Positions 2,212-31,964 of a DNA stretch of 34,141 bases are shown here, piece by piece. The DNA comes from Bacteroidales bacterium (GTDB lineage Bacteria > Bacteroidota > Bacteroidia > Bacteroidales > CAIWKO01). The DNA lies in assembly GCA_035403765.1 (NCBI GenBank), contig DAONFU010000005.1:1-34141 (forward strand), given 5' to 3'. A model generated the notes under the pieces. That model worked only from the letters and a program-made list of their open reading frames with translations. It did not search any database and was not told where the DNA came from. Every line of letters starts with the position of its first letter. The first letter of the stretch is position 1. Position numbers and translations under genes: made by a program.

Positions 2212-4407
2212 TTAATTACCAACTTCAGATAAGAATTTCAGTCGGACCAGCCGTATTTCTTCCTCGGAAAATTCTTCTTCGCCGAGCTCTTTTAAGGCGT
2301 CTTCCACCGAATCCGTTTCTGCTTCATAAAAATATTCATATATTTCTTCCTGGTGATAAGGCTCGACATACTCTTCAATATAGTAGTTGATATCAAGCTT
2401 GGTGCCAGAGGCCACAATACTTTCGAGTTCTACCAGTAGTTCTTCGATAGTCAGGTTTTTGGCATTGGCAATATCTTCCAGGGGTATTTTACGGTCAATA
2501 TTTTGAATTATGTACACTTTCAGTCCGGATTTATTTACGACAGATTTGACAATCATGTCCATGGGCCTGATAATTTCATTTTCCTCCACATATTTTGCTA
2601 TCAGGTCCAGAAAGGGCTTTCCGTACTTTTGTGCTTTGCCTGCGCCCACTCCCGTTATTTGCAACAATTCATCCATTTTGATGGGGTATTGTATGGCCAT
2701 ATCTTCGAGGGAAGGGTCCTGGAAGATGACAAAAGGCGGCAGGTTTTCTTTGCGGGATATTTGTTTCCTAAGGTCTTTCAATAGGGTGAACAGTGTTTTA
2801 TCAGCGGTGCTGGTTTTTCCTCCGCCGGCAAAAAACTCATCTTCCTCCGCAGAGTCGTAGTCGTGGTCCATTGTAAGCATGATAGTTTCCGGTTCATCCA
2901 GAAATTTCTCCCCTTCTTTGGTGATTTTTAGAATCCCGTAGTTTTCAATATCTTTGCTCAACAGCCCATTGACAATAGTTTGGCGAATTACTGCGGTCCA
3001 GAATTTTTCATCATGGTCGGCGCCTTTGCCAAAGACGCTCACTTTGTGGTGTTTGAAAGATTTTACCTGGGCTGAAACTTTGCCGACAATAATGTTCACC
3101 AAATGTGCGCCCTTACATTGTTCCTTAGTTTCCATAACGGCTTCCAATACTGTTTCTACGTAAGCGGTACCGTCAAATTTTGTTTTCGGATGCAGGCAGT
3201 TATCGCAACACTGGCAGTTTTCTTCCTCATAAACTTCGCCGAAATAATGCAGCAGCAATTTTCGTCTGCACACCGAAGATTCGGCATAGGCTATAGTTTC
3301 CATGAGCAGTTGTTTGGCTATTTCCTGCTCGTTGACCGATTTTTTCGAGGTAAACTTTTCCAGTTTCTGGATGTCTTCATAAGCATAAAAAGCAATACAG
3401 TTGCCCTCGCCATCATCGCGTCCTGAGCGGCCTGTTTCCTGATAATATCCTTCGAGGCTTTTGGGCATATCGTGATGGATAACATAGCGCACATCGGGCT
3501 TGTCGATACCCATGCCAAAAGCGATGGTTGCCACGATCACATCAACCTCTTCCATCAGAAATTTATCCTGGTTTGCTTTGCGTATTTCCGATTCGAGGCC
3601 GGCATGATAGGGCAGCGCCTTGATTCCATTGACCTGAAGGGTTTCTGCAAGTTCTTCCACTTTTTTGCGGCTGAGGCAATAGATGATTCCTGATTTGCCG
3701 ATGTTGCTTTTTACATATTTTGTGATGTCGCGCTGTACGTCCTTGGTCTTTGCCCTTACTTCATAGTATAGGTTCGGGCGGTTGAACGACGATTTGAAGA
3801 GGCCGGCATTCATCATGCCCAGATTTTTTTGGATATCGTGTTGCACCTTAGGGGTGGCCGTGGCGGTTAGCGCCATCACGGGAACTTTTTTGCCGATAGC
3901 TTTAACGGTGGGTCTGATATTGCGGTATTCGGGCCGGAAATCGTGACCCCATTCCGAAATACAGTGGGCTTCGTCGATGGCGTAAAAAGAAATTTTGAAC
4001 TGTTTAAAAAATTCAATGTTTTCTTTTTTGGTGAGCGTTTCGGGGGCAACATACAGCAGTTTTGTTTTTCCCGCAAGCAGGTCGGCTTTCACATCGGTCA
4101 TTTCCTGCTTCGAGAGAGAAGAGTTTAAAAAGTTTGCGATCCCTTTGTCCACGCCAAAATTCCGGATATTGTCCACCTGGTTTTTCATGAGCGAAATAAG
4201 TGGCGAAATGATAATAGCCGTTCCTTCGCTTATAAGGGCGGGGAGCTGATAGGTGAGCGATTTACCTCCCCCCGTAGGCATGATAACAAATGTATCCTTG
4301 CCGTCCAGCACATTTTTAATGATGGCTTCCTGATTTCCCTTGAACGTGTCGAACCCGAAAAACTCTTTAAGAACTATATGTAATTTATCTCCTGATTTTT
4401 CTTTCAT
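2212..4407 (-). CDS. recQ: ATP-dependent DNA helicase RecQ
   Basis: 731 aa. It has a Walker A-like motif (MPTGGGKSLTYQLPA), DEAH box (AIDEAHCISEWGHDFRPEY), helicase motifs (TATAT, IVATIAFGMGIDKPDVRYVIH, QETGRSGRDG), a RecQ zinc-finger Cys cluster (CRRKLLLHYFGE...CQCCDNC) and a C-terminal HRDC-like region. Confidence 0.95.
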   Translation of the reverse strand: MKEKSGDKLHIVLKEFFGFDTFKGNQEAIIKNVLDGKDTFVIMPTGGGKSLTYQLPALISEGTAIIISPLISLMKNQVDNIRNFGVDKGIANFLNSSLSKQEMTDVKADLLAGKTKLLYVAPETLTKKENIEFFKQFKISFYAIDEAHCISEWGHDFRPEYRNIRPTVKAIGKKVPVMALTATATPKVQHDIQKNLGMMNAGLFKSSFNRPNLYYEVRAKTKDVQRDITKYVKSNIGKSGIIYCLSRKKVEELAETLQVNGIKALPYHAGLESEIRKANQDKFLMEEVDVIVATIAFGMGIDKPDVRYVIHHDMPKSLEGYYQETGRSGRDDGEGNCIAFYAYEDIQKLEKFTSKKSVNEQEIAKQLLMETIAYAESSVCRRKLLLHYFGEVYEEENCQCCDNCLHPKTKFDGTAYVETVLEAVMETKEQCKGAHLVNIIVGKVSAQVKSFKHHKVSVFGKGADHDEKFWTAVIRQTIVNGLLSKDIENYGILKITKEGEKFLDEPETIMLTMDHDYDSAEEDEFFAGGGKTSTADKTLFTLLKDLRKQISRKENLPPFVIFQDPSLEDMAIQYPIKMDELLQITGVGAGKAQKYGKPFLDLIAKYVEENEIIRPMDMIVKSVVNKSGLKVYIIQNIDRKIPLEDIANAKNLTIEELLVELESIVASGTKLDINYYIEEYVEPYHQEEIYEYFYEAETDSVEDALKELGEEEFSEEEIRLVRLKFLSEVGN

Positions 4408-4714
4408 TACCTTACCAATTTATTTTATGTAAATATACGCAAATTTCGTCTATTTGACAATATTTTTTTCAATTATATTACGAAATTATAAAAATTTATT
4501 AGTAATCAAAAAAACTTTATTTATTTGTGTAGTCTTTTAGGTTTTAAGTTTTTTTCTTTTTTTACTTCCGGATTGTTTTTTGTTTATAACACAAAAATAA
4601 AAATTGTTTCATTAGAAAAAAAATTTTTAAAATTTTGGGGAAGTTAGGAATTAAATTGTTCACGAAAGATTAAAATCAAGTTCAAAAAATTTCAATAGGA
4701 ATTGATAAGTTCCT

Positions 4715-4811
4715 TCTATAAAACTTTGGATTTTTTTGTTACCTGCCTACCTGCATGGCAGGCTCGCTCCCACAGCTGCAATCCGCCAATTGGCTGACTC
4801 GTGAACCTTCA
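4715..4811. repeat. Copy A of a ~90 bp hairpin-containing repeat; inverted partner at 12422..12510
   Basis: A 28-nt block, aactttggatttttttgttacctgccta (4722..4749), is identical to the reverse complement of 12476..12503. The match continues imperfectly through ggcagg..cgctcccacagc..ccaattgg..gactcgtgaac.ttca. Confidence 0.8.
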
Positions 4812-4840
4812 TAAATTCATTGTTTTATATCCAGTTTGTG

Positions 4841-4848
4841 TATATTTG
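4841..4848 (+). promoter_or_regulatory. Candidate Bacteroidota -7 promoter box (TATATTTG) for the GT2 operon
   Basis: Matches the TAnnTTTG consensus 43 nt upstream of the ATG at 4891. It sits between the arms of a perfect 14-bp inverted repeat (4804..4817 and 4852..4865). Confidence 0.3.
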
Positions 4849-4890
4849 CAAAATTTATGAAGGTTTGTATCATATTTTTTCATTTTCAAA

Positions 4891-5598
4891 ATGGTAAAAG
4901 TTGCGGTCATTGTTCCTGCTTATAACGAAGAAAAAGCTATTGCTGGTGTTGTAAATGGAATAAACGCTGTTGATCCCGGCACAGATATTTTTTTGGATGT
5001 CATTGTCATCAATGATTGTTCTGTTGATCAGACGGCCCCGATAGTTTCTGAACTCAAATGTACGCTGCTCGACCTGCCGGTCAACACTGGCATTGGCGGG
5101 GCGGTGCAAACCGGGTTTAAATTTGCCTTTGAAAATAATTACGATTATGCCATGCAGGTGGACGGTGACGGACAACACCCCCCGGCAGAAATACCGAAAC
5201 TTATTCATGCTATTATTGAAAAAAACCTGGATGTGGTCATCGGTTCACGGTTTTTAGAAAATAAAGGGTTTCTCTCCACTTTTTCAAGAAGGGTGGGTAT
5301 AGTGTTTTTCAAACACCTGATTCAAATGCTCTGTGGCATCAGGATTACGGATGCCACTTCCGGTTTCAGGATCGTCAATAAAAAGGTGCTTTCCCTTGTC
5401 AGTGAACAATATCCTGATGAATACCCGGAACCCGAATCTATTATTTTATTATGGAAACATAATCTTAAAATAGGGGAAGTTCCCGTTCAAATGCGTGAGA
5501 GGCAAGGTGGCCAGTCCAGCATAAGGGCTTTTAAATCTTTATATTATATGGTCAAGGTCAGTCTTGCGATTTTCTTTAAATATCTTAAATCAAAATAA
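4891..5598 (+). CDS. Family 2 glycosyltransferase, polyprenyl-phosphate sugar synthase type (Dpm1/GtrB/ArnC-like), without C-terminal TM helices
   Basis: VAVIVPAYNEEKAI, INDCSVDQT and QVDGDGQHPP (DxD region) are hallmark GT2 / GtrB-Dpm1-like motifs. At 235 aa it is short and has no evident membrane-spanning segment. Confidence 0.85.
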   Translation: MVKVAVIVPAYNEEKAIAGVVNGINAVDPGTDIFLDVIVINDCSVDQTAPIVSELKCTLLDLPVNTGIGGAVQTGFKFAFENNYDYAMQVDGDGQHPPAEIPKLIHAIIEKNLDVVIGSRFLENKGFLSTFSRRVGIVFFKHLIQMLCGIRITDATSGFRIVNKKVLSLVSEQYPDEYPEPESIILLWKHNLKIGEVPVQMRERQGGQSSIRAFKSLYYMVKVSLAIFFKYLKSK

Positions 5599-5603
5599 AA
5601 TAT

Positions 5604-5978
5604 ATGGAAAACGTAGTACCAATTAAAATTCAAATCATCAGCATTGCTATGAGTATATCCTTTTTGATATACATCGGGCGCCTCATAATAAAAGGCAAAC
5701 TCCGCGAGGAATATGCCATATTCTGGATCATCAGTACATTGGTCCTTATTACATTTTCAATTTGGAGAAACGGGCTGGATATTATTTCAAAAATGCTGGG
5801 GGTATATAATGCGCCCAATTTAGTGTTTACAGTAGCCATTTTTGGCATCTTCATTTATTTAATTCATTTGTCCCTGGTAGTTTCAAAGCTCCATGATAAA
5901 AATAAAAAACTTTCTCAGGATATCGCTTTGCTTAAAAATAAACTTGAAAAAGAACTAAAAGAAAAGATTAACGAATAG
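5604..5978 (+). CDS. Small integral membrane protein (DUF2304-like) with a C-terminal coiled-coil tail
   Basis: 124 aa with about four hydrophobic segments, then KLHDKNKKLSQDIALLKNKLEKELKEKINE. It starts 6 nt after the GT2 stop and ends 4 nt before the radical SAM start. Size, topology and GT2 adjacency fit my recollection of the DUF2304 family, but this is unverified. Confidence 0.55.
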   Translation: MENVVPIKIQIISIAMSISFLIYIGRLIIKGKLREEYAIFWIISTLVLITFSIWRNGLDIISKMLGVYNAPNLVFTVAIFGIFIYLIHLSLVVSKLHDKNKKLSQDIALLKNKLEKELKEKINE

Positions 5979-5981
5979 GCC

Positions 5982-7418
5982 ATGAATTTCAACAGGCGGA
6001 ACATATATTTTTTATATCCTCCTATTTCAAAATTTGAAAGATACTCCTCCGAGATAGGAAATGCAGGCGGAGAACAAATACCTTTAGGTATTTATTACCT
6101 TGCTTCCTATTTGCGTCAGTTTAACTACAATGTAAAAGTATGCGATGCAGAATCGAACAAAATGAATTCCGCCCGGATCATTGAAGATATAAATAAATTT
6201 CAACCGGCCTATGTTGGGATCAGTTCAACCACGGTGGCGTTCCACAGGGCCCTGGAAGCGGCAAAAGAAATCAAAAATAATTTCCCTGAAATTATAACAA
6301 TTCTTGGCGGGCCGCATGTATCGGCTAACCCGGAACATGCCATGCAATATAAGGAGTTCGACTTTGGCGTACTTCATGAAGGGGAATATACCCTGGTAGA
6401 TTTGCTGGATTCTTTATACAATGGGAAAGAGCACCTGAATGTCAAGGGAATTATTTTCAGGAATAAAGACGGGAAGATAATACAAAACCCCAAAAGAGAA
6501 TACATTGAAGATCTGGACTCGCTGCCCTTTCCCGCTTATGACCTGATAGAAGACATTTCATTATATACGCCTGACCCATCAAATTACAAAACACTTCCTG
6601 TAATAAATATGATGACGAGCCGGGGATGCCCCAATCAATGCACTTTCTGTGATAATAATATCTTCGGGAGAAAATACAGGCAGCGGTCTGCCGAAAACAT
6701 CGCCGCTGAAATCAAATACCTGCGCAAAAATTTTGGCGTTCGTGAAATAGCTTTTGTTGATGACACCTTCCTTATTGATAAAAAACGGCTTTATAAACTG
6801 TTCGAGATACTTGAAGAAGAAAAGATTTCGATTTTCTGGACTTGTTTGAGCCGTATCAATAATACCGATTATGAGTTTCTGAAATTTTTGAAATCAAAAG
6901 GTTGCTGGCATATTTCTTTCGGAATAGAATCGGGAGATGAGAATATTCTTAAGCTAATCAAAAAGAATATTTCCCTGGATAAAGCTGTCGAGGTAATAAA
7001 CTGGTGCAAAAAACTTAAAATTAAAACGAAAGGATTTTTCATTCTCGGGCACCCTACTGAAACAATGGAGACTATAGAAAAATCCATCAAACTTGCCTGC
7101 AGGTTAAAACTCGATAATATCATAGTTACCCTGAATACCCCGATAGCAGGTTCACAACAATTCGAAGAAGCCGGCAGGTATGGAAGTCTGGACAAAGCCA
7201 ACTGGGAAGAATTCAATTACTGGAGGCCGGTATTTGTTCCCACGGGACTGACAAAAGAAATTCTCTTAAAAAAACACCGTGAATTTTATCGCAGGTTTTA
7301 TTTGCGGCCGCGTATAATAATGCAATATTTTTTCAGCTTTTTCGGGAAAGGCGGATTAAAAAGGTTTCTCACTACCTTTCGGGCAAGTTTTTATATTTTT
7401 AAGAAAAAATCAGAATAG
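5982..7418 (+). CDS. B12-binding domain radical SAM protein (class B radical SAM family)
   Basis: CxxxCxxC cluster motif in MTSRGCPNQCTFCDNNIFG. The N-terminal ~150 aa form a Rossmann-like segment (VKVCDAE...YVGISSTTVAF...ILGGPHVS) typical of the cobalamin-binding domain fused to radical SAM cores. Confidence 0.85.
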   Translation: MNFNRRNIYFLYPPISKFERYSSEIGNAGGEQIPLGIYYLASYLRQFNYNVKVCDAESNKMNSARIIEDINKFQPAYVGISSTTVAFHRALEAAKEIKNNFPEIITILGGPHVSANPEHAMQYKEFDFGVLHEGEYTLVDLLDSLYNGKEHLNVKGIIFRNKDGKIIQNPKREYIEDLDSLPFPAYDLIEDISLYTPDPSNYKTLPVINMMTSRGCPNQCTFCDNNIFGRKYRQRSAENIAAEIKYLRKNFGVREIAFVDDTFLIDKKRLYKLFEILEEEKISIFWTCLSRINNTDYEFLKFLKSKGCWHISFGIESGDENILKLIKKNISLDKAVEVINWCKKLKIKTKGFFILGHPTETMETIEKSIKLACRLKLDNIIVTLNTPIAGSQQFEEAGRYGSLDKANWEEFNYWRPVFVPTGLTKEILLKKHREFYRRFYLRPRIIMQYFFSFFGKGGLKRFLTTFRASFYIFKKKSE

Positions 7419-7438
7419 AATATATTCCCCGTTGTCGC

Positions 7439-7921
7439 TCACTGATTTGATTTTGCCCATGCGAGGTTGTTTTTTGCCAACTGAAAATCAGGGTCTATTT
7501 TCAAGGCTTTTTCGCAGGCTTCCGCACCTTTATCATACATTTTCATGGCATTGTAAGCCGAGCAGATATTATTGTAGGCTGTGGCATTCTGTGGATTCAG
7601 TTCCAGCGCTTTTTGACTTGCCTGGATGCACTCTTTGAACATATTATTATTATAATATTCCATGCTTAAATTAATGTAATTGCTTTCGGAAGGCCGTGCT
7701 TTAGCCAGGTCTATTGCTGATTGTAATTTTTCTGCGGGGGAGAACGCCGTATTGTTATCAACATTGGCTGAATCGTGCACGGGGGCCGAGAGATCCTTAT
7801 TTCGGATAAAGTAATTCCAATATACAAGATACAACATGGGAAGAATTATTAAAACCGCGATAATCCATTTGGTGGATTTCAGTTTTGTGTCAGATTGCTT
7901 GCTGTTTACTGGTTTGCTCAT
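7439..7921 (-). CDS. Membrane-anchored TPR repeat protein
   Basis: ATG at 7919-7921. One N-terminal TM (WIIAVLIILPMLYLVYW) is followed by two TPR units (NYINLSMEYYNNNMFKECIQASQKALELNPQNATAYNNICSAYNAMKMYDKGAEACEKALKIDPDFQLAKNNLAWAK). The C-terminal module is paralogous to the C-terminus of 9044..11149. Confidence 0.8.
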   Translation of the reverse strand: MSKPVNSKQSDTKLKSTKWIIAVLIILPMLYLVYWNYFIRNKDLSAPVHDSANVDNNTAFSPAEKLQSAIDLAKARPSESNYINLSMEYYNNNMFKECIQASQKALELNPQNATAYNNICSAYNAMKMYDKGAEACEKALKIDPDFQLAKNNLAWAKSNQ

Positions 7922-8001
7922 GTTTTTTTGTTTAAGTGATTTGTACCTTAAGTGATAAACATGTGAGTGTTATAATCCACTCGATGCCCAACTCGGGTTT
8001 C

Positions 8002-8244
8002 CTATTGCCGACACCATATTTTATTGATTGATTTATTGGATTTGTAATACAGATCATTCAGGTCCGTGTTGTAGTTTCGCAGATAATCAAGGAATCTTGG
8101 GCCATTGTATAAATGGTTAGGCCCGTCCTGGGTTGTAAAATACTTGGTTGCTAATACGGGAAACAGGATGACCAGGACTAATTTAACATAAAGAAGCGGA
8201 TCAATTTTACGATACAATTCTGTAAGATTACCATTATTGTTCAT
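8002..8244 (-). CDS. Hypothetical small protein with one hydrophobic segment; possibly the N-terminal remnant of a larger membrane protein
   Basis: The only evidence is an ORF from the ATG at 8242-8244 (MNNNGNLTELYRKIDPLLYVKLVLVILFPVLATKYF...). I recognise no family. Confidence 0.25.
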   Translation of the reverse strand: MNNNGNLTELYRKIDPLLYVKLVLVILFPVLATKYFTTQDGPNHLYNGPRFLDYLRNYNTDLNDLYYKSNKSINKIWCRQ

Positions 8245-8479
8245 CGGGCTTATTATTTGCACAGAGCAATGATATCAATCATTTCTCAAAGATATAAAAA
8301 AGAACTTGTTTCGATAAAATAATATTATTTTTACAATCTGGATTAGGCGAAAAAATCGTTCATAAAATAAAAATTCATTATTTTTAGTAAGGGTTTCAAA
8401 TAATAATTTTGAAATAGTTTTTAAACGGAGTATTTGACTGATTTTTTAATATTTTTGCCCGTGAAAAAAATTAAATCAA

Positions 8480-9060
8480 ATGGAACAAGGCGATAAAAAT
8501 ATTGATTTCAATGAAGTCGATGGAAAAAGTTCTGCTCCTGAAAACAAAAAAAAGAATTATTTCCACATGATTATGACCGGTATTTTGCTTTTATTTCCTT
8601 TTATTTTTTTATTTTGGTTTTTATATGCAGGTAAGGGCGAACTTAAGGAGGAGCAAAAGTCCGCAACGACATCAGTAACGCAAACTACACTAACCACGCT
8701 AACAGCAGAACAACATTTGGTAATGCAATGAAAACCGCAAAAACAGACTCCTCTGAAGCAGCATTGGCAGACCTTAGATTGGCATATATAGATAATGAAA
8801 TGTATAAAGAATGTATAGAAACACTCAAAAAAGTTATTGCTCTTAATCCCCAAAATATGATTTCTCTGAATAATCTTGGGTTTGCATATGGGGTCATAAA
8901 AGATTGGAATAATAGAATAAAATAGTGCCAAATGGCTATAAAACAGAATCCTGATTTTCAATTAGCAAAAAACAATCTTAAGTGGATGCAGGATGAAAAG
9001 CAAAAAGCTGGGAATTATTTATTAATTTTAAAACAGGACTTCCATGAAAACCTGGTTTAA
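8480..9060 (+). pseudogene. Decayed paralogue of the membrane-anchored TPR protein (one frameshift plus one in-frame TAG)
   Basis: ORF 8480..8731 encodes a TM anchor ending ...LTAEQHLVMQ*. ORF 8728..8925, in another frame, continues the alignment to 7439..7921 (AMKTAKTDSSEAALADLRLAYIDNEMYKECIE versus AIDLAKARPSESNYINLSMEYYNNNMFKECIQ). After the TAG at 8926-8928 the same frame still reads CQMAIKQNPDFQLAKNNLKWMQ, matching CEKALKIDPDFQLAKNNLAWAK. Confidence 0.65.
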
Positions 9061-11149
9061 AGAAAAATTGTATTTTAATCTGACTTGTCTCATACTGCTG
9101 ACGGGCCTTATTATCACGTATTCCAACCATTTTAACAACTCTTTTCATTTTGATGACGATCATGCCATAGTGAATAATATATGGATCAAAGACATCAAAA
9201 ATATTCCCAAATTTTTTACGGATGCCACCACATTCTCCATTCTTCCTCAAAACCAATCGTACCGGCCAGGAACAGTAACATTATCAGCTATTGATTTCTG
9301 GATTTCAAAACACAATCCTCTTGGCGTTAAAAAAAACGAATTGTATCAGGATGAAGGGCTCAATCCATTTTACTTTCACTTATCAATCTTTATCGCCTTT
9401 ATTTTACAGGCGCTCCTGATGTTTCTTTTTTTTAAAAAAATCCTTGATAACACGATAAAACATAAGTGGGACGATTATTTCGCCTTATTTATTACGGCAT
9501 GGTATTGCTATCATACGGCAATCGCTGAAACTGTTAATTATATTTGCGCCCGGACAGATGGCTTTTCTACCCTTTTGATACTTTTTGCGTTTGTGATTTA
9601 TGCTTATTTTCCCCGCAAAAGAAAGTACGGGTTCTTTCTCATTCCTTATATAGCAGGTTTTTTAGTCAAAGAACCCTCCATCATGTTTGGGCCTTTATTG
9701 TTCTTTTACATTTTGCTCATTGAGAAAAAAGCAGACCTGACCACACTTTTTAAAAAGGAAACCTTCGGCAAGGCGCTGCAGTCTTTAAAGGCTGTTGCCG
9801 TTACATTGATCATAGCGATATTTCTTTATGGCTTGTCAATTTATATGAGGCCGGACACATTTTCCCCGAGTTCACACTCAACACTGAGTTATTTGATCAC
9901 ACAGCCATTCGTATATGTCCATTATTTTATGACATTTATTTTACCCGCCAATTTGTCTGCTGATTCTGACTGGAGGCCACTGAGCACTATCTTCGATATT
10001 CGTCTGCTGATGGGATTAATGTTTATTGCCGGAATGATATGGTTTGCGATACGGATATCAAAAAACAAGGCGCTCCTTCCTGTTTCTTTCGGCATCTTCT
10101 GGTTTTTTCTTGCTCTTGCCCCGTCTTCCAGTTTTATTGCTCTTTCGGAGGTATTGAACGATCATAGGATATATTTTCCATACGTGGGACTGGTGCTTGC
10201 ATTCTCGGTCATGTTGATATACCTGCTCATTTTAAAAGATGAAAAAAGATTTTTGAACTCTATTTACCTAAGAGTATTTACAGGTGTACTCGTTTTTGGG
10301 TTGATATGCGGACATGCTTACGGCACTCATCAACGGAATAAAGTTTGGAAGACAGAAGAAACTTTATGGTATGATGTTACCGTAAAAAGCCCCGGAAATG
10401 GCCGCGGTCTTATGAACTACGGGTTGACACAGATGAGTAAGGGAAATTACCCCGTTGCTAAAAAATATTTTGAAAAAGGACTTAAACTTCAGCCTGGCTA
10501 TCCCCTTTTGTTTATTAACCTTGGCATTCTTAATGCGGCCATGGGAAACCCTGCGGAAGCCGAAAACTATTATAAAAGAGCGGTAGCCATAAACCTGTAT
10601 CAAGATGAAAGTTATAGTTATTATGGCGAATTCCTTTATAGCCAAAAACGCTATGATGAAGCAAAAGCTTGTCTGAAAAATGCCCTGAACAAAAACTCTT
10701 CCAATATGCAGGCACGATTTGCTTTAATGGCTTTGTATTACGACACAGAAGACTGGGGAGCACTTTCAAGAATTGCCGAAGAAACCCTGCAATACTTACC
10801 GAATGATGCGAAATGCCTGGCATATATCGACGCTTCTAAGAACAAAAAAACCAAACTCGATGTAGCTATTGAAACAGCGAAAAATAGTCCGACATCAGAT
10901 AATTATATTAATTTAAGCTTACATTATTACGAAGCAGGCATGTATGCCGAATGTATCACTGCCTGCGAAGAAGCGCTTAAAATCAATCCGGATAACGCCA
11001 TTGCCTATAACAACATCTGCTCCGCATATAATGCCCTCAAAATGTATGACAAGGCCATCGCAGCCTGTAACAAAGCTCTTGAAATTGATCCCGTGCATAA
11101 TTTTGCAAAAGGCAATCTGAATTACGCTAAGGAACAACTAAACAAATAA
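9044..11149 (+). CDS. TMTC-like GT-C fold glycosyltransferase candidate: polytopic membrane domain plus C-terminal TPR array
   Basis: 701 aa. The first loop carries SFHFDDDHAIVNNIWIKD, comparable to the FxxDDxxAIxxN loop-1 acidic motif of TMTC O-mannosyltransferases. Many hydrophobic segments span residues ~10-430. From ~440 onward there are multiple TPR units (GLMNYGLTQMSKGNYPVAKKYFEKGLKLQPGY...AYNNICSAYNALKMYDKAIAACNKALEIDP). Confidence 0.6.
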   Translation: MKTWFKEKLYFNLTCLILLTGLIITYSNHFNNSFHFDDDHAIVNNIWIKDIKNIPKFFTDATTFSILPQNQSYRPGTVTLSAIDFWISKHNPLGVKKNELYQDEGLNPFYFHLSIFIAFILQALLMFLFFKKILDNTIKHKWDDYFALFITAWYCYHTAIAETVNYICARTDGFSTLLILFAFVIYAYFPRKRKYGFFLIPYIAGFLVKEPSIMFGPLLFFYILLIEKKADLTTLFKKETFGKALQSLKAVAVTLIIAIFLYGLSIYMRPDTFSPSSHSTLSYLITQPFVYVHYFMTFILPANLSADSDWRPLSTIFDIRLLMGLMFIAGMIWFAIRISKNKALLPVSFGIFWFFLALAPSSSFIALSEVLNDHRIYFPYVGLVLAFSVMLIYLLILKDEKRFLNSIYLRVFTGVLVFGLICGHAYGTHQRNKVWKTEETLWYDVTVKSPGNGRGLMNYGLTQMSKGNYPVAKKYFEKGLKLQPGYPLLFINLGILNAAMGNPAEAENYYKRAVAINLYQDESYSYYGEFLYSQKRYDEAKACLKNALNKNSSNMQARFALMALYYDTEDWGALSRIAEETLQYLPNDAKCLAYIDASKNKKTKLDVAIETAKNSPTSDNYINLSLHYYEAGMYAECITACEEALKINPDNAIAYNNICSAYNALKMYDKAIAACNKALEIDPVHNFAKGNLNYAKEQLNK

Positions 11150-11645: not shown

Positions 11646-12399
11646 TCAAAAATGAAAAATGCAAAAGAAAATATTATTATTAAAGACGCCCGGGTGCATA
11701 AAATGTTCTTGCCTGGTATCAATGTCATAAGGATGGAAATACCCAAGCACGGGATTCCCCTTTTTCCAGCATCTTTTTATGGACCATCGGGTGAAAAAAA
11801 TGGCAGAAGCCTCATGTAAATACCACCTGCGATAGGGAAGGAGATCAATTTTGATTTGTACAAGGTCATGGGCAATTCCCATATCTTATTATCAATAAGC
11901 TTCACTATCCTGCCAAATTCCGGCCAGCCATATAACACGCTTTTTGTCGGAAAAACAGAGCTGGAATAAACAAAATTTAATTCTTCGAGTATTTCATAGG
12001 CCCAGGCTGTTTTTTCTATGATCGAAAAATTAGGTGCACGGAATCCGTAAATTTTTTCTACTCCGGCATCATGTAAGCATTCATGCTTTTGATCACCTCT
12101 TCTTTAAAAATTTTCGGATTTTGTTTATCAAGCTGAATATGAACGTTTGAATGACTGGCGACCTCATGCCCGTTTTCCGCAATTTTCCGTATCAAACCGG
12201 GATATGCCCTTGCCACATCACCTACCACAAAAAAGGTTGCCTTACAATTATGTTCTTCCAGGAAAGCAAGATATTTTTCGGCCATCAGGGGAAGCCTTTC
12301 CTGATACTTTAAACCATCTTCCATCCAGAATCTCACATCTTCCAGGTCAACAGCGAAAAGATAAATTTTTTTCACCGCTGGGTTAATATCCGTGGGCAT
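11646..12399 (-). pseudogene. Polysaccharide deacetylase (NodB domain plus DUF3473-like C-terminus), disrupted by at least two frameshifts
   Basis: Frame 1 (12399..12058) reads FAVDLEDV...KATFFVVGDVA...GHEVASHSNVH. The reading continues in a second frame as KHECLHDAGVEKIYGFRAPNFSI...ELPMTLYKSKLISFPIAGGIYMRLLPFF. A third frame (11882..11646) reads TRWSIKRCWKKGNPVLGYFHPYDIDTRQE. The shifts coincide with homopolymers at 12087..12090 and 11794..11800. Confidence 0.7.
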
Positions 12400-12898: not shown

Positions 12899-14872
12899 AT
12901 GAAAGAAAATTTCGATCCAAAGCTAAACTACGAGGAAACTAAAAAAGCCATTGGATACACGCCGTTGAAACAGGCAACACACGAAGACTGGAACCGCATA
13001 GGCTTTATGTCGGGACTGGAAGTTCATCAGCAACTTAAAACCAAAGAAAAACTTTTTTGCCATTGTCCGGCAGGGGTGTACCAGAAAAAAAATCAGTACG
13101 ATGCCGAACTGCTAAGGCATATGCGCCCAACACTCAGCGAACTGGGCGAATACGACGGCACCGCCCTGATGGAGTTTAAAACACGCAAAGAAATTGTGTA
13201 CCGCGTAAAAAACGAAACCACCTGCACTTACGACGTGGACGATACGCCTCCATTTAAACTTAACCGGGAAGCCCTCGAAAACGCCTTGGAAGTAGCCTTG
13301 CTCAGCAAATTGAATATTGTGGGCGAAGTCCACATCACGAGAAAACAATACCTTGACGGAAGTATTCCCACAGGATTTCAGCGAACGGCGATATTGGGCG
13401 TGGAAGGCGAACTACCCTTGAAAACAAAAAAAATCAGGTTGATACAACTCAGTATCGAAGAAGATTCCTGTCGTGAAATTTCCGATATCGGCCACCGCCG
13501 TATCTATTCCACCGACCGCCTCGGTGTGCCTTTAATAGAAACCGTTACCTATCCGGATATGATAAATCCTTATGAGGTAAAAGAAGCCTGCGACTATATC
13601 CGTTTTTTAAACCGCAGCACCGGCAAGGTAAGAACAGGCATCGGCGCCGGCAGACAAGACGTGAACGTTAGCTGTAAAGGCGGTACCCGTATTGAAATTA
13701 AAGGTGTGGCGCATACACGGTGGATACCAAAGCTCACTCATAATGAATGTTTCAGACAATGGGCCTTGTTACATATCCGCGAAATTTTAAACGAAAAATT
13801 CGGAGACGGCTCTTCGTGGAAGATGAATTATCAGGAAGTGCAACTCAAAGATTTTCATTTTTCGAACCTGCCGCTCAACGAAGAAAAAAAGAATTCTTAT
13901 AAATATTATGCCATCAACCTTCCCGGCTTCAAAACACTGCTATCGCATTTCACCCAGCCAGGAAAAACGTTTGCCGACGAAATCAGCGAACGCCTGAAAG
14001 TGATTGCCTGTATTGAGTTGCCCAATATGACCCACTCGGAAGAATTTGAGCCCTTGATAAGCGGCGATGATTTCTCAAATATCCGCACCTCACTAAAAGC
14101 CAAAGAAGACGACGCACAGATTATTCTCTGGGGCCCGGAAGACGATATGAAAACCGCACTGGAAACGATAGAAGAGCGCTGCCAGTGGGCTTTCAAAGGC
14201 GTGCCTAACGAAACCCGCAAATCATTCGAAAACGGCACCACCATTTTTGAACGCGTATTGCCCGGCGCCGACCGTATGTATCCTGATACCGATTCCGTCC
14301 CCATCCCTTTAGAAGACGAATATATCAACCGTTTGAAGAAAAACCTGCCCACCGAAGTCATCGAAAGGTACCAGAAACTTAAAGAATGGGGCGTGCCTGA
14401 AGATACTTATACCTACATATTTAAGAAAAATCTCTTTCCGGTAATTGAAAAAATTATCAGTGTAAACGGTTACAAACCCAAATTTGTAGGTTCTTTTATC
14501 GGACACACCTTAAAATATTTTGAAGGGCAACACACTATATCCCCATACTTTAATTATGAAATGATAGGAGATATGTTTGCTTTCATAAACGAAAAGAAAC
14601 TGGATAAACAGATTGCCAAAAAAATGCTGCCCATCCTGATACAACATCCAAAAATGGATTTTGAATCAATTCTGGCCACGATAAAATTCAAAAAGGTTAC
14701 CAAAGAAGAGATTCTTTCCAATATCCCTTTCATGAAAGAAAAATTCCGTCAGATACGCATTTCGCAACAACCCGATGTGGAAACCAAATGGATAATGGGC
14801 GGTTTGCGCAAAATGGCTACCGGCAACATTTGTCTGGCCGAGTTAAAAGAATTAGTTGAAACCAGTAATTAA
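12899..14872 (+). CDS. gatE: Glutamyl-tRNA(Gln) amidotransferase subunit E (archaeal-type GatE)
   Basis: 657 aa. The N-terminus GFMSGLEVHQQLKTKEKLFCHCP matches the GatE GLEIHQQL..KLFC signature, whereas GatB has HVQL. It also has DRLGVPLIETVTYPDM, an insertion domain, a C-terminal helical tail, and an adjacent GatD partner. Confidence 0.8.
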   Translation: MKENFDPKLNYEETKKAIGYTPLKQATHEDWNRIGFMSGLEVHQQLKTKEKLFCHCPAGVYQKKNQYDAELLRHMRPTLSELGEYDGTALMEFKTRKEIVYRVKNETTCTYDVDDTPPFKLNREALENALEVALLSKLNIVGEVHITRKQYLDGSIPTGFQRTAILGVEGELPLKTKKIRLIQLSIEEDSCREISDIGHRRIYSTDRLGVPLIETVTYPDMINPYEVKEACDYIRFLNRSTGKVRTGIGAGRQDVNVSCKGGTRIEIKGVAHTRWIPKLTHNECFRQWALLHIREILNEKFGDGSSWKMNYQEVQLKDFHFSNLPLNEEKKNSYKYYAINLPGFKTLLSHFTQPGKTFADEISERLKVIACIELPNMTHSEEFEPLISGDDFSNIRTSLKAKEDDAQIILWGPEDDMKTALETIEERCQWAFKGVPNETRKSFENGTTIFERVLPGADRMYPDTDSVPIPLEDEYINRLKKNLPTEVIERYQKLKEWGVPEDTYTYIFKKNLFPVIEKIISVNGYKPKFVGSFIGHTLKYFEGQHTISPYFNYEMIGDMFAFINEKKLDKQIAKKMLPILIQHPKMDFESILATIKFKKVTKEEILSNIPFMKEKFRQIRISQQPDVETKWIMGGLRKMATGNICLAELKELVETSN

Positions 14873-14892: not shown

Positions 14893-16281
14893 ATGAGCGA
14901 AGATTTTTTTCAGGGATATAAAGGTGATGCACTTGAAATATTAAAAAAATACGCCGTCCGTGTCTGGGGTCAGGCCGAAGTGGACACTACCCGCGGCTTG
15001 TTTAAAGGAACCGTGTTGCCCCGCGCCGAAAATGATGACGATAAACACATAGTCCTCAAAGTAATTACCGGTTATAACATCGGGGTTGACATCAGCACCA
15101 TCCTGACGATGAAAGAAGTTGGTTATAAAAAGGCAAATTACAAAATACCCGAAAAAGAGTTCCCCTATACGCCCGGAAAGCCCAAGGTAAAGCTGATAGG
15201 CACCGGCGGGACCATAGCCTCGCGTCTCGACTACCGTACCGGCGCCGTGATTCCTGCCTTTTCGCCTGGAGAACTTTATGGCGCTGTGCCCGAACTGGCT
15301 GATATCTGCAATCTGGAAACCGAAAAACTTTTCGCAGTATTCAGCGAAAACATGGGGCCCGATCAATACAAAAAACTTGCCGTTGCCATAGGGCAGGAAA
15401 TTGAAAAAGGCACCGATGGTATTATTATAGGCCATGGCACGGATACCCTGCATTATACGGCTGCCGCGCTTACTTTTATGGTACAGAATCCGCCCATACC
15501 TATTGTGCTGGTTGGCTCACAGCGTTCCTCCGACCGGCCGAGCTCCGATGCCGCCCTCAACCTGATGCATGCCGCTACAGCAGCGGCTCATGGCGATATT
15601 GCCGAGGTAATGGTGTGTATGTTTGGGCCTACATCAGACGAATACGGGTTCTTGCATCGTGGCACCCGGGTGCGTAAAATGCATTCGTCTTACCGTTCTA
15701 CCTTCCGCACTATCGGAGATATTCCCGTGGCCACAGTAACACGTAATGGCGTGGTGCCACAAAAGCCCGTGTATAATCACCGCCGCAAGGATACTTCTAA
15801 TGTGAAAATCACACCCGTTTTCGAAGAAAAAGTGGGCATGTTGTATTATTACACCAATATGCAGCCCGATATGATTGACTCTATGGTTGATAATGGTTAT
15901 AAAGGCATTATCATCATCGGTACCGGACTGGGACATGTCAACAAACCTATATATCCGGCCATAGAACGTGCCGTGAAAAAAGGTGTAGCCATTTATATGA
16001 CAGTACAAACCTTGTGGGGCTATGTACATATGTTTGTTTACGACACAGGCCGCGACCTGATGGCCAAAGGCATTATCCCGGCAGAAAACATGCTGCCCGA
16101 AGTGGCCTATATTAAATTGGGATGGGCGCTTGGCCAAACCAACGACCTCGAAAAAGTAAAAGAAATAATGCTGACACCAATCAATGACGACATTACCCCG
16201 CGCGAACCTTACAACGGATACCTGATTTATCAGGGTGGCGTAAAAGAAATCGAAGATTTTATCAAAAAAGTACACAAATAA
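14893..16281 (+). CDS. gatD: Glutamyl-tRNA(Gln) amidotransferase subunit D (archaeal-type GatD, asparaginase-like)
   Basis: 462 aa. The N-terminal domain has DDKHIVLKVITGYNIGVDIS, which is GatD-specific. The type I asparaginase core carries the catalytic motifs GTGGTIASRLDYRTGAV and IIGHGTDTLHYTAAAL. It starts 20 nt after gatE. Confidence 0.8.
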   Translation: MSEDFFQGYKGDALEILKKYAVRVWGQAEVDTTRGLFKGTVLPRAENDDDKHIVLKVITGYNIGVDISTILTMKEVGYKKANYKIPEKEFPYTPGKPKVKLIGTGGTIASRLDYRTGAVIPAFSPGELYGAVPELADICNLETEKLFAVFSENMGPDQYKKLAVAIGQEIEKGTDGIIIGHGTDTLHYTAAALTFMVQNPPIPIVLVGSQRSSDRPSSDAALNLMHAATAAAHGDIAEVMVCMFGPTSDEYGFLHRGTRVRKMHSSYRSTFRTIGDIPVATVTRNGVVPQKPVYNHRRKDTSNVKITPVFEEKVGMLYYYTNMQPDMIDSMVDNGYKGIIIIGTGLGHVNKPIYPAIERAVKKGVAIYMTVQTLWGYVHMFVYDTGRDLMAKGIIPAENMLPEVAYIKLGWALGQTNDLEKVKEIMLTPINDDITPREPYNGYLIYQGGVKEIEDFIKKVHK

Positions 16282-16387: not shown

Positions 16388-16505
16388 CACTTTCCACTTT
16401 CTACTTTCCACTTTCCACTTTCCACTTGCCACTTGCCACTTGCCGCTTGCTACTTGCTACTTTCCACTTTCTACTTGCAACTTTCTACTTTCCACTTTCC
16501 ATTTC
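16388..16505. repeat. Heptanucleotide tandem repeat, 16 full units plus one degenerate unit, consensus YACTTKC
   Basis: Unit-by-unit reading: cactttc x2, tactttc, cactttc x2, cacttgc x3, cgcttgc, tacttgc, tactttc, cactttc, tacttgc, aactttc, tactttc, cactttc, catttc. It abuts the stop codon (16504-16506) of the minus-strand guanylyltransferase gene. Confidence 0.95.
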
Positions 16506-17598
16506 AAATATATTGTTCCCCTTTTTCAATTTTGATTTTTACATCATTCACAAAATTGCGGATCTGCTGTTCGTCGTTTTTACGGCATATTAACAACACA
16601 TTCCCCGACTCCACCACAATGTAATCGTCGAGGCCCTGCAGCACTACCAGCTTGTCTTCGGGCATATTTACAATGCAGTTGTGGCTGTCGTACATAATTA
16701 CATCTTTGCCAACTATGGCATTGCCGGCTTCGTTTTTTTTGCGGTTTTCATATAAGGAGCCCCAGGTACCCAGGTCAGACCAGCCGAAATCAGAACACAG
16801 CACATATACATTATCAGCCTTTTCCATCACACCATAGTCGATAGAAATGCTTTTGCCAGTGGCGTAAGCGTGCTGAATAAATTCCGGTTCTTTTTCTGTA
16901 TTGTATATCCCCTTACCTTTTCCAAACGATTCGTTGATTTCGGGAAGATGCGTTTCAAAAGCTTGAAGAATACTTTTTATTGACCAGACGAAAATGCCCG
17001 AATTCCATAAGAAATCACCGCTTTCAATAAATTGCCGTGCCATTTCGAGCACGGGTTTTTCGGTAAAAGTTTTTACTTTTTTTAAGCGGGTATCTTCGGG
17101 GTAAGCATCCGTATCCTTGAATTGAATATAGCCATAACCCGTGTCGGGACGGCTTGGGGTAATACCCAGTGTCAGCAGCCAGTTATTTTTTGAGGCTGCC
17201 TGAAGTGCCGAGCTGATGATACCGGAAAAAGAATCTTCGTTAAGGATAATGTGGTCGGAAGGGGCTATTACCACATTGGCATCAGGGTCAGATTCATTGA
17301 TTTTATAACAGGCATAAGCAATACACGGTGCGGTATTTCTGCGGGCAGGCTCAGCAATTATCTGACGCGCTTCCAGAGAAGGTATTTGTTCCCTTACCAG
17401 GTCGGCATATTTTTCGTTAGTAACAATAAAAATGTTATCTTTCGGGATGATCTTTTCAAAACGCCTGAAAGTTTGCTGTATCAGCGTTTCTCCCGTGCCT
17501 AGAATATCAATGAATTGTTTGGGATGGGAAGTGCGGCTCAGGGGCCAGAAACGCGAACCTATGCCGCCCGCCATAATCACACAATAGTTACTGCTCAT
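16504..17598 (-). CDS. Mannose-1-phosphate guanylyltransferase (nucleotidyltransferase domain only, no PMI domain)
   Basis: N-terminus CVIMAGGIGSRFWPLSR..PKQF, which is the NTP-transferase G-rich loop. It also has IIAEPARRNTAPCIAYA, and its length and C-terminal beta-helix-like region are typical of ManC-type enzymes. Confidence 0.8.
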   Translation of the reverse strand: MSSNYCVIMAGGIGSRFWPLSRTSHPKQFIDILGTGETLIQQTFRRFEKIIPKDNIFIVTNEKYADLVREQIPSLEARQIIAEPARRNTAPCIAYACYKINESDPDANVVIAPSDHIILNEDSFSGIISSALQAASKNNWLLTLGITPSRPDTGYGYIQFKDTDAYPEDTRLKKVKTFTEKPVLEMARQFIESGDFLWNSGIFVWSIKSILQAFETHLPEINESFGKGKGIYNTEKEPEFIQHAYATGKSISIDYGVMEKADNVYVLCSDFGWSDLGTWGSLYENRKKNEAGNAIVGKDVIMYDSHNCIVNMPEDKLVVLQGLDDYIVVESGNVLLICRKNDEQQIRNFVNDVKIKIEKGEQYI

Positions 17599-30914: not shown

Positions 30915-31964
30915 ATGAAAAAGTCAGTTTTTGTACTTTTCTTTCTTTTGCTGGTTTATATGGTCAGCGCCCAGGAAGTTTCCACCGACACCTTGTTTAA
31001 AGGCGATTATCAGAACGCTGAAAAGGTTTATAACGACGGGGTGAAATTTTTTGAAAACAAAAAATACAACGAAGCCATAAAAAAGTTTTCTGAAGCCATC
31101 GCCCTGAAACCTGATTTTGAAAAAGCTTATTTCAACAGAGCTGCCGTAAGTATGGAACAGGGCAAATTTCAGGAAGCCCTCTCCGATTTTTCCAGATACA
31201 TAGACCTTACACCCACCGCCAACGCATATTTCAGCAGAGGAAAATGCCGTTTCGAGCTGAAAGACCATGACAATGCCCTGGCTGATTTTACCAATGCCCT
31301 GGCCTTGGATGTCAATCATGCTCAGGCATACTACTACCGGGGAGAAATACTCTTTGAAAAAAATGAATACGAAAAAGCCATCAGCGATTTTGATGCGGCA
31401 ATAAAAAATAAACCGGATTACGCCTATGCTTACAACGATAGGGGAAGTGCAAAAGTAAAACTCGACAAATATGAAGAAGCAAAAGCAGACTACTACCTGG
31501 CAACACAAATTAATCCCAATATGCCTTTTACCTATAACAACCTCGGCAGCGCAAAAAAGAAATTAAAAGATTTTAAAGGCGCTATCGCCGATTATTCCAC
31601 TGCTATACAAAAAAAACCAGACTATTTTATTGCCTATAACAACCGCGGTACCGCGCATTTTGAACTGGAGGAATATGAAGATGCCATCAAAGATTTTGAC
31701 CAGGCCATAAAACTCAACCCCACGTATTTTTATGCTTACAACAATCGCGGCAATGCAAAATTCAAACGGCAGGATTATGAAGGCGCCATTGCCGACTATA
31801 GCAAAGCCATTGAACTCAACTCCAGCTATGGCTATGCCTTCCTGAACCGCGGCATTGCCTACGAAATGTTGCGAAAACCACAAAATTCCTGCGAAGACTG
31901 GAAAAAAGCAGCCTTGTTGGGTATCACCACCGCAGCCAGTTATTCAAATCTACAATGCAAATAA
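30915..31964 (+). CDS. Secreted TPR repeat protein
   Basis: Signal peptide MKKSVFVLFFLLLVYMVSAQ, followed by about 8 tandem 34-aa TPR units (A..Y.NRG.A...L..Y..AI.D...AI.L.P). Confidence 0.85.
   Translation: MKKSVFVLFFLLLVYMVSAQEVSTDTLFKGDYQNAEKVYNDGVKFFENKKYNEAIKKFSEAIALKPDFEKAYFNRAAVSMEQGKFQEALSDFSRYIDLTPTANAYFSRGKCRFELKDHDNALADFTNALALDVNHAQAYYYRGEILFEKNEYEKAISDFDAAIKNKPDYAYAYNDRGSAKVKLDKYEEAKADYYLATQINPNMPFTYNNLGSAKKKLKDFKGAIADYSTAIQKKPDYFIAYNNRGTAHFELEEYEDAIKDFDQAIKLNPTYFYAYNNRGNAKFKRQDYEGAIADYSKAIELNSSYGYAFLNRGIAYEMLRKPQNSCEDWKKAALLGITTAASYSNLQCK

Follow-up and report, generated by a model that had tools for sequence, protein, structure and literature searches.

Periplasmic glycosylation that uses polyprenyl-phosphate sugars as donors and GT-C enzymes as transferases shapes O-antigens, cell-wall polymers and glycoproteins. 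To our knowledge, the only tailoring described for such donors while they are lipid-linked is redox epimerisation (DprE1/E2, ORF13). Here we analyse a stretch of 34,141 nucleotides from a Bacteroidales bacterium (contig DAONFU010000005.1 of assembly GCA_035403765.1), hereafter the window, in which positions 4891-11149 carry genes for a family 2 glycosyltransferase (GT2), a small DUF2304 membrane protein, a B12-binding radical S-adenosylmethionine (SAM) enzyme and a polytopic, TMTC-like GT-C protein with tetratricopeptide repeats (TPRs). A preliminary description of this DNA had proposed an uncharacterised three-component periplasmic glycosylation system, and the five genes that it named are all present and intact where it placed them. 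We give about an even chance to the reading that the locus is a donor-tailoring version of the periplasmic polyprenyl-phosphate-sugar/GT-C glycosylation pathway. What appears to be new is the radical SAM gene, which is added to the known three-component glycosylation logic in an association that spans several phyla.

Comparison with described systems

In Streptococcus pyogenes, GacI, GacJ, GacK and GacL provide the N-acetylglucosamine side chain of the group A carbohydrate, and PpgS, Rv3632 and Rv3779 form the counterpart in Mycobacterium tuberculosis (10.1101/180810). In these systems the GT2-DUF2304 pair makes an N-acetylhexosamine (HexNAc)-phosphate-polyprenol and a GT-C enzyme transfers the sugar outside the cytoplasm. 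The likeness lies in a short GT2 without transmembrane (TM) segments that is directly followed by a DUF2304 gene, in the window 5 nt after the GT2 stop codon. The window differs in that its operon has an additional B12 radical SAM gene and no Wzx-type flippase such as GacK, that its GT-C is TMTC-like with a TPR array and not GacL- or Rv3779-like, and that its host is a diderm member of the Bacteroidales. The Gtr (GtrA/GtrB/Gtr*) and CsbB/GtcA/YfhO systems likewise combine a polyprenyl-phosphate-sugar synthase with a subsequent extracytoplasmic GT-C. An added enzyme that remodels the lipid-linked sugar before transfer is found in the pentofuranose systems (Kelly et al. 2024, PMC11127046) and in the mycobacterial DprE1/E2 pathway, and this is the role that we propose for the radical SAM enzyme of the window. 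DprE1/E2 and the ORF13 epimerase thus give a precedent for the remodelling of a polyprenyl-phosphate sugar between synthase and GT-C (PMC11127046). In contrast to the Gtr and pentofuranose systems, the tailoring enzyme of the window would be a cobalamin radical SAM enzyme, where those systems use an epimerase or oxidoreductase; the vicinity includes no flippase gene, and the enzyme on the acceptor side carries TPRs.

A second precedent comes from lipid-linked hexoses, on which the radical SAM enzymes HpnJ and Cds have been proposed to act; in the HpnI/HpnK/HpnJ system a GT2 attaches a hexosamine to a membrane lipid, and the B12-type radical SAM enzyme is proposed to rework this lipid-bound sugar (PMC13459092). 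In contrast to Hpn and the calditol synthase Cds, neither the window nor the recurrent neighbours of its radical SAM gene include hopanoid genes, and the lipid is expected to be polyprenyl phosphate. A reaction different from that of HpnJ is expected as well, since ring contraction would destroy donor capacity.

On the transferase side, TMTC1-4 are eukaryotic protein O-mannosyltransferases of the GT-C/PMT clan (CAZy GT105). The window protein resembles them in a predicted 11-helix N-terminal membrane domain, its C-terminal TPR array and a set of motifs in the same order. It differs in being bacterial and linked to a radical SAM gene, in an inexact PxxP motif and in having no significant TMTC_DUF1736 match. 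Dolichyl-phosphate mannose is an unlikely donor for it. Our literature search found no description of a combination of radical SAM enzyme, GT-C and polyprenyl carrier, in line with the preliminary description, which knew of no characterised bacterial system of such composition; most subscription journals lay outside this search, so that the absence is weak evidence.

A predicted donor synthase pair and a radical SAM enzyme in one operon

The first three genes of the locus lie consecutively on the plus strand with gaps of 5 and 3 nt in the map of open reading frames (ORFs), and form a tight operon. The operon had been noticed before, with gaps given as 4-6 nt. The first gene (4891-5598) encodes a short, soluble-type GT2 of 235 aa and GacI/PpgS type (Pfam Glycos_transf_2, 1.6e-24), which contains QVDGDGQHPP and for which a crude hydropathy scan predicted no TM segment. 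In NCBIfam the GT2 comes closest to PpgS, the polyprenyl-phospho-GalNAc synthase (87 bits), followed by AglJ, a dolichyl-phosphate hexose transferase, PgfS and ArnC; the best PDB sequences are the Pyrococcus dolichyl-phosphate-mannose synthase 5mlz (8e-14), ArnC and GtrB. Matches to cytoplasmic polysaccharide GT2s were much weaker than those to polyprenyl- or dolichyl-phosphate enzymes. These similarities agree with its earlier assignment to the GtrB/Dpm1 type, and from them we predict a polyprenyl-phosphate (Hex/HexNAc) glycosyltransferase.

The second gene (5604-5978, plus strand) encodes a DUF2304 membrane protein of 124 aa (PF10066, 4e-26), for which the same crude scan gives three TM segments and not the approximately four stated previously. 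DUF2304 is the family of GacJ and Rv3632 (10.1101/180810). In S. pyogenes, GacJ binds the GT2 GacI in a complex that is stable in detergent; it brings the Km for undecaprenyl phosphate down from 18.7 to 1.1 uM and increases Vmax by several hundred times. Rv3632 likewise stimulates PpgS, and the flippase of the Gac system is a separate Wzx protein, GacK (10.1101/180810). Since GacJ and Rv3632 act as stimulators and the flippase is separate, DUF2304 is best read as an activating subunit and not as a translocator, and by analogy we predict this role, as a membrane subunit of the GT2, for the window protein. The preliminary description had implied a translocating role for the small membrane protein, which does not agree with its membership in an activator family of which no member is known as a flippase. 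Of the three components envisaged there, a putative polyprenyl-phosphate GT2 and a linked GT-C are found and the translocator is not: with DUF2304 set aside and no flippase in the window, the 'three components' are not the classical three.

The third gene (5982-7418, plus strand) encodes a class-B, that is B12-binding, radical SAM enzyme of 478 aa. Both expected domains are present (PF02310, 3.6e-23, residues 26-141; PF04055, 5.8e-33, residues 212-372), as is the CxxxCxxC cluster (C216, C220 and C223, invariant among homologues), which bears out the earlier identification. The substrates of class-B radical SAM enzymes include many small molecules and lipids. The best NCBIfam match is HpnJ (TIGR03471; 258 bits, 1.3e-76, aligned over residues 51-450 of 478), followed by BchE (196 bits) and then by P- and C-methyltransferases; further matches are the hopanoid C-3 methylase HpnR, a lipid-biosynthesis B12 radical SAM model and C-methyltransferase models for ribosomally synthesised and post-translationally modified peptides (RiPPs). 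With 258 bits against an equivalog cut-off of 577.6 bits, the window enzyme is not an HpnJ orthologue. The closest relative of known structure is 9ccb (MgmA). Homologues that are 57-74% identical across phyla occur in Bacteroidota, Nitrospirota, Planctomycetota, Patescibacteria, Omnitrophota, Desulfobacterota, Firmicutes and one archaeon, and existing labels on the family read 'BchE-like cyclase' or 'YgiQ family'.

These matches raise the question of whether the enzyme belongs to an unrelated pathway, either RiPP maturation, with the TPR proteins as peptide binders, or true HpnJ-like hopanoid side-chain chemistry. HpnJ is the best match and the RiPP C-methyltransferase models match too; in addition, TPR genes are found in some Bacteroidales RiPP clusters (PMC10352776). 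The HpnJ score is, on the other hand, far under the cut-off of that family. Neither the window nor the set of recurrent neighbours showed a squalene-hopene cyclase, another hpn gene, a precursor peptide, a peptidase-transporter or a SPASM domain, and these neighbours are glycosylation genes. We consider both readings very improbable and rejected them on the sub-cut-off score and the lack of RiPP or hopanoid genes nearby. From gene linkage only, we predict that the radical SAM enzyme tailors the lipid-linked sugar donor.

Fold and motifs of the TMTC-like GT-C protein

The model, structural matches and motifs of the 701-aa protein (9044-11149, plus strand) point to a TMTC-like GT-C with a C-terminal TPR array. 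Pfam identifies TPRs at residues ~455-700 and nothing in the first 450 residues. AlphaFold2 models were obtained for the full-length protein (pLDDT 90.7) and for residues 1-437 (pLDDT 91.5, pTM 0.92). Foldseek with the full-length model returned TPR proteins only, whereas the membrane domain alone matched Pmt4 (9i5k), yeast Stt3 (8agc, 6ezn), PglB (5ogl), Pmt1/2 (6p25) and human STT3B (6s7t) in the PDB, with AftA and EmbB lower. Seven of the eight best chains are PMT or oligosaccharyltransferase/PglB enzymes, at probabilities of 0.96-1.00; no TMTC chain was among the matches in the PDB copy searched. As far as the model goes, the membrane domain is of the GT-C fold, the class that includes protein glycosyltransferases, and the fold proposed in the preliminary description is thereby supported. 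Sequence searches against the PDB yielded no GT-C match, neither with phmmer and the 701-aa protein nor with a HMMER profile of 20 cross-phylum N-terminal domains, so that homology to solved GT-Cs is visible at the fold level only. Among 20 radical SAM-linked GT-C homologues, PMT_2 matched 8 (best 2.4e-9) and TMTC_DUF1736 matched 2, weakly (best 0.035), and JGI pipelines label some homologues 'protein O-mannosyl-transferase'. There are more than 2,300 homologues of the GT-C/TPR protein, mostly in Bacteroidota.

For TMTC1-4, an architecture of 11 helices followed by a TPR array has been deduced (PMC7801869). The helix pattern of our model fits 11 membrane helices within residues 1-~437, and from residue 438 onwards ~15 helices of the TPR array. 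An odd number of membrane helices and a basic N-terminus suggest that the TPR array is extracytoplasmic, on the catalytic side. We compared the protein with the published TMTC motif table (PMC7801869), with loops assigned from the secondary structure of the model and not from coordinates. Motif M1, DD, corresponds to D37-D38, which lies in FHFDDDHAIVNN (residues 34-45) and is invariant in 57 close and 20 cross-phylum homologues; the TMTC-like catalytic loop noted earlier is thus present. M2 (SHKSYRP) is represented by S72-Y73-R74-P75 with an invariant R74, and M3 (RxD) by R170-x-D172 with an invariant R170. Only the KE half of M4 (KE(T/Q)xxT) matches, as K209-E210 with an invariant K209. M5 (DW) is D309-W310, conserved among close homologues. 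For M6 (PxxP) there is no exact match, the nearest feature being P360...P366, and M7 (ERxxY) appears as H374-R375-xx-F378, of which H374-R375 are conserved among close homologues and EHRxY is found in distant ones. The motifs occur in the published order, five of them clear, M4 partial and M6 not exact.

The GT-C protein shares its C-terminus with smaller TPR proteins. In a Bacteroidales contig (L013) from a metagenome-assembled genome (MAG), which carries a radical SAM enzyme 98% identical to that of the window and served as our reference for decayed genes, two further TPR proteins of 176 and 753 aa are intact. Over their last 93 aa, a 160-aa TM-anchored TPR protein of the window and the 701-aa protein share 60% identity, and a terminal module of two repeats is common to four proteins of the locus, those of 160, 176 and 753 aa and the 701-aa GT-C (window 7439-7921, minus strand, and 10853-11149, plus strand; L013:14530-15060 and L013:12070-12350). 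Its consensus is NYINLS..YY....Y.ECI.AC..AL.I.PDNA.AYNNICSAYN, and a common docking or ligand-binding role is plausible from this similarity. Small TPR genes adjoin GT-C/TPR homologues in L001, L002, L007, L030, L042, L085 and L086 as well, and the small TM-anchored TPR proteins are probably adaptors or partners of the GT-C/TPR enzyme.

Conserved neighbourhoods of the radical SAM gene

We collected 80 loci around homologues of the radical SAM enzyme from GTDB species genomes of many phyla. The closest group (radical SAM identity of at least ~50%) comprises 42 loci, namely the window, L001 and L004-L043, all of them from metagenomes or MAGs. Unbiased clustering of the neighbours within 5 kb in the 80 loci gave a GT2 in 46, a TPR/GT-C cluster in 34, a second GT2 type in 22 and DUF2304 in 17, the commonest neighbour being a polyprenyl-phosphate-type GT2. 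With a hidden Markov model (HMM) of the GT-C membrane domain, full-length homologues were found within 5 kb of the radical SAM gene in 30 loci, often as tandem copies, and the nearest TMTC-like GT-C lies within 500 bp in 20 loci. In the closest group, 29 of the 42 loci have a GT2 within 4.5 kb and 20 of the 42 a TMTC-like GT-C. All three genes occur together in Bacteroidota, in Nitrospirota (L011, L015, L016, L043), in Planctomycetota (L039) and in Desulfobacterota (L014, L025, L032, L033, L038, L040). Since gene order and strand vary among these loci, inherited synteny does not explain the linkage. The preliminary description had proposed to examine co-conservation across Bacteroidota; it holds there, and beyond this phylum in Nitrospirota, Desulfobacterota and Planctomycetota.

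The GT2 partner takes three forms: a short GT2 with DUF2304, a GT2 with two C-terminal TM helices (best NCBIfam matches AglJ, PpgS and ArnC) and a fusion of GT2 and GtrA_DPMS_TM (L011, L014, L016, L040). Judged by sequence, all three architectures are hallmarks of polyprenyl-phosphate glycosyltransferases. Where the TMTC-like GT-C is missing, the radical SAM and GT2 genes stand beside PMT_2 (L034), YfhO (L036) or DUF6020 (L026), or beside proteins without a family assignment, which are 629-955 aa long and for which 10-16 TM segments are predicted. The donor synthase and the radical SAM enzyme are thus the constant part and the transferase the variable one, which places the radical SAM enzyme on the donor side of the pathway.

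The pathway might also be the same with the radical SAM enzyme acting on the nucleotide-sugar precursor or on the polyprenyl carrier, for example by isoprenoid methylation in the manner of HpnP/HpnR on hopanoids. Class-B substrates are diverse, the NCBIfam matches of the enzyme include HpnR and the lipid-biosynthesis model, and the order of steps cannot be read from gene linkage. A more distant group of radical SAM homologues (L044-L083, 38-44% identity), probably paralogues with a related but distinct role, is found in large glycan clusters next to a 338-aa cytoplasmic GT2, a 210-aa methyltransferase, Wzx genes and up to two further radical SAM enzymes (L057:9779-12823, L051:9875-14125); the cytoplasmic GT2, methyltransferases and additional radical SAM enzymes would fit tailoring of nucleotide sugars or cytoplasmic glycans. 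The same clusters also hold GT2-DUF2304 pairs and tandem TMTC-like GT-Cs. Against an action on precursor or carrier, the most constant partner of the orthologues is a polyprenyl-phosphate GT2 of any architecture, often abutting or overlapping the radical SAM gene, and the nearest described family, HpnJ, has been proposed to act on a lipid-attached sugar (PMC13459092). We judge this alternative unlikely and continue with the lipid-linked sugar as the favoured substrate.

A converse sample consisted of seven neighbourhoods of GT-C/TPR homologues in Bacteroidota, where the radical SAM gene is adjacent in L001 and L042 and 9 kb away in the P0002 contig. L084 and L087, from more distant Bacteroidia with GT-C/TPR proteins 46-48% identical, keep the recQ / GT2-DUF2304 ... 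GT-C-TPR frame. Their radical SAM slot (L084:12743-17510, L087:12341-17977) is occupied by a different cassette, which includes a 136-aa protein, a 538-aa soluble FAD-type oxidoreductase (GSGATG), a short-chain dehydrogenase/reductase (SDR)-type epimerase/reductase and a class-I methyltransferase. By analogy, this cassette resembles the DprE1/DprE2 epimerisation of a lipid-linked sugar.

Two further neighbourhoods were observed in this survey. In Patescibacteria (L020:7399-13347, L021:7361-13354), a GT2-DUF2304 pair lies between two paralogous B12 radical SAM genes, and the next gene encodes a protein of 629-634 aa that has 10-12 predicted TM segments and belongs to no Pfam family. This suggests that candidate-phyla-radiation genomes follow the same logic, with a membrane partner of unclassified type. 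The P0002 contig (ENA ERZ27297709, 9367-19232) contains a GT-C/TPR homologue with 68% identity, the closest one outside the genus. Between this gene and the radical SAM gene it has an insert with AMP-ligase, FkbH-like, ketoreductase/dehydratase, methyltransferase, KAS III, metallo-beta-lactamase-fold and SDR genes.

Separation of the GT-C gene from the operon

In the window, the GT-C gene is separated from the GT2 operon. The 160-aa TPR protein (TPR Pfam matches, one predicted TM segment) is encoded at 7439-7921 on the minus strand. A membrane-anchored TPR protein following the operon had been described correctly, though without its strand: the gene is convergent with the radical SAM gene. The 1.1 kb between this gene and the 701-aa gene holds two decayed genes, as seen in a DNA alignment with L013. 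The first (8002-8262, minus strand) is an N-terminal stump of the 753-aa polytopic TPR protein, of which the first 86 codons remain and ~2 kb are deleted. The product of the intact gene (L013:12070-14331, minus strand) has C-terminal TPRs and, by prediction, ~11 TM segments. Its membrane part matched no Pfam family and not the GT-C HMM, and the protein may be a second, unclassified TPR-bearing membrane transferase. The second (8480-~9018, plus strand; split ORFs 8480-8731 and 8728-8925) is a pseudogene of the 176-aa TM-anchored TPR protein with a 1-bp deletion and a premature TAG, of which L013:14530-15060 is the intact copy.

With a convergent gene and two pseudogenes in between, the GT-C gene of the window is not part of the GT2 operon. 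The two could be independent adjacent units, in which the GT2-DUF2304-radical SAM donor serves another GT-C or the deleted 753-aa protein, and the TMTC-like GT-C/TPR protein uses another donor such as undecaprenyl-phosphate mannose. The second polytopic TPR-bearing protein of the L013 locus and a GDP-mannose pyrophosphorylase-like gene at 16504-17598 of the window would fit such a split. So would the block of small TPR gene and GT-C, which is inverted relative to L001, L030 and L042, and the GT-C/TPR homologues that occur apart from the radical SAM gene or GT2-DUF2304 pair: L085 has neither nearby, and L002 and L086 have a different GT2 and a STELLO-like gene instead. The recQ...CMD frame common to Bacteroidia could furthermore be inherited synteny. 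However, the TMTC-like GT-C is the immediate neighbour of the radical SAM gene in the 20 loci mentioned above, and in Nitrospirota, Desulfobacterota and Omnitrophota (L016, L043, L032, L044) the genes abut on the same strand, which shared ancestry of gene order cannot explain. We think it rather improbable that the units are independent, and prefer a common pathway of donor-side operon and GT-C.

Proposed pathway

The favoured donor-tailoring pathway would run in four steps. In the first, which follows from family membership, the GT2 at the cytoplasmic face, activated and held at the membrane by DUF2304, would load undecaprenyl phosphate with a sugar taken from a nucleotide sugar; by analogy with GacI and PpgS, this sugar is most likely a HexNAc. 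In the second, for which gene linkage is the evidence, the cytoplasmic B12 radical SAM enzyme, whose gene shows translational coupling to the other two of the operon, would modify the lipid-linked sugar. Its chemistry is most likely a C-methylation, in keeping with class-B membership; another radical rearrangement or an epimerisation is possible. A flippase would then carry the modified donor across the membrane. Finally the GT-C, for which fold and motifs are observed and activity is inferred, would pass the sugar at the periplasmic face, with its DD, KE, DW and HR loops, to an acceptor bound by the TPR array. Proteins of the periplasm or outer membrane are candidate acceptors, and a glycan is possible as well.

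Every catalytic step, the order of the first two, the sugar, the chemistry and the acceptor are inferred from family, fold, motif and linkage evidence. Several observations weigh against this pathway. Neither enzyme of the donor side is a named equivalog: the radical SAM enzyme reaches no NCBIfam equivalog cut-off, and all scores of the GT2 are under theirs (PpgS 87 bits versus 370). An HpnJ-type ring contraction by the radical SAM enzyme would leave the product no glycosyl donor; because donor function would be abolished, a reaction that leaves the anomeric centre intact, such as methylation, is more likely. For the third step, no GtrA_DPMS_TM, Wzx or MATE flippase was found in the window by Pfam search of the locus genes and 19 further ORFs. 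The Foldseek E-values of the GT-C matches are weak (1.8e-3 to 4e-2) with query-normalised TM-scores of 0.36-0.49, and the N-terminal domain of the window protein has no Pfam PMT_2 or TMTC_DUF1736 match even at E <= 10. The linkage has gaps as well: about one third of the closest radical SAM loci are without a GT2 in reach, several of these contigs starting at the radical SAM gene, and the stand-alone GT-C/TPR genes and the position of the window GT-C outside the operon have been described above.

We hold only tentatively, at clearly less than an even chance, the wider reading of a cross-phylum pathway in which a radical SAM enzyme edits a polyprenyl-phosphate sugar and bacterial TMTC-type GT-Cs transfer it to protein acceptors chosen by their TPRs. 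If the proposal is true, the donor step would gain a new kind of chemistry, with the first radical reaction known to act on a lipid-linked glycosyl donor. The proposal would predict an unusual, perhaps C-methylated, cell-surface sugar in uncultured Bacteroidales, Nitrospirota, Desulfobacterota, Planctomycetota and Patescibacteria, and, together with the TMTC-like transferase, a bacterial counterpart of eukaryotic TMTC O-glycosylation with an unusual sugar. A very conserved, unnamed radical SAM family would receive a testable role, and the abundant bacterial TMTC relatives could be tractable models for structure and for TPR-guided acceptor choice.

Other features of the window

Upstream of the GT2 operon lies recQ (2212-4407, minus strand). 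The divergent intergenic region between the two (4408-4890, 483 bp) is the presumed promoter region and has the lowest GC content of the window. Scanning it for promoters gave consensus-like matches only, for example at 4845-4873 on the plus strand, and was uninformative; a terminator scan was no better than shuffled controls. The Rfam scan of the window returned one tRNA and no cobalamin riboswitch or other RNA. The locus had been described as an AT-rich segment, which applies only modestly: GC content is 32-39% over 4-9.5 kb compared with 41-47% in the flanks.

Downstream of the GT-C gene, a decayed polysaccharide deacetylase gene is found at 11646-12399 (minus strand), where a 113-aa ORF matches PF01522 and the remainder is in short broken ORFs. 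We considered it as an HpnK-type partner, on the analogy of the GT2/deacetylase/radical SAM set, and rejected it because it is a pseudogene, is missing in L013 and has no counterpart among the radical SAM neighbours, in which no deacetylase family recurs. A GatB/GatE-domain gene (12899-14872, plus strand, 657 aa) adjoins a gene with Asparaginase and GatD_N domains (14893-16281, plus strand, 462 aa); from its domains, the pair looks like an archaeal-type GatDE Glu-tRNA(Gln) amidotransferase in an apparent Bacteroidales genome. According to Pfam scans, the remaining genes are ordinary Bacteroidales housekeeping genes, including OmpH, PagL-like, MlaE/F, PGK, GlnA, MutS2, a UbiA-family prenyltransferase, a PorE-like type IX secretion system (T9SS) protein and the tRNA. 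The PorE-like TPR/PD40/OmpA protein, a T9SS component, is encoded at 31992-34043 (plus strand) and preceded by a 349-aa all-TPR protein (30915-31964, plus strand). T9SS cargo genes also lie near GT-C/TPR homologues in L001, L002 and the P0002 contig.

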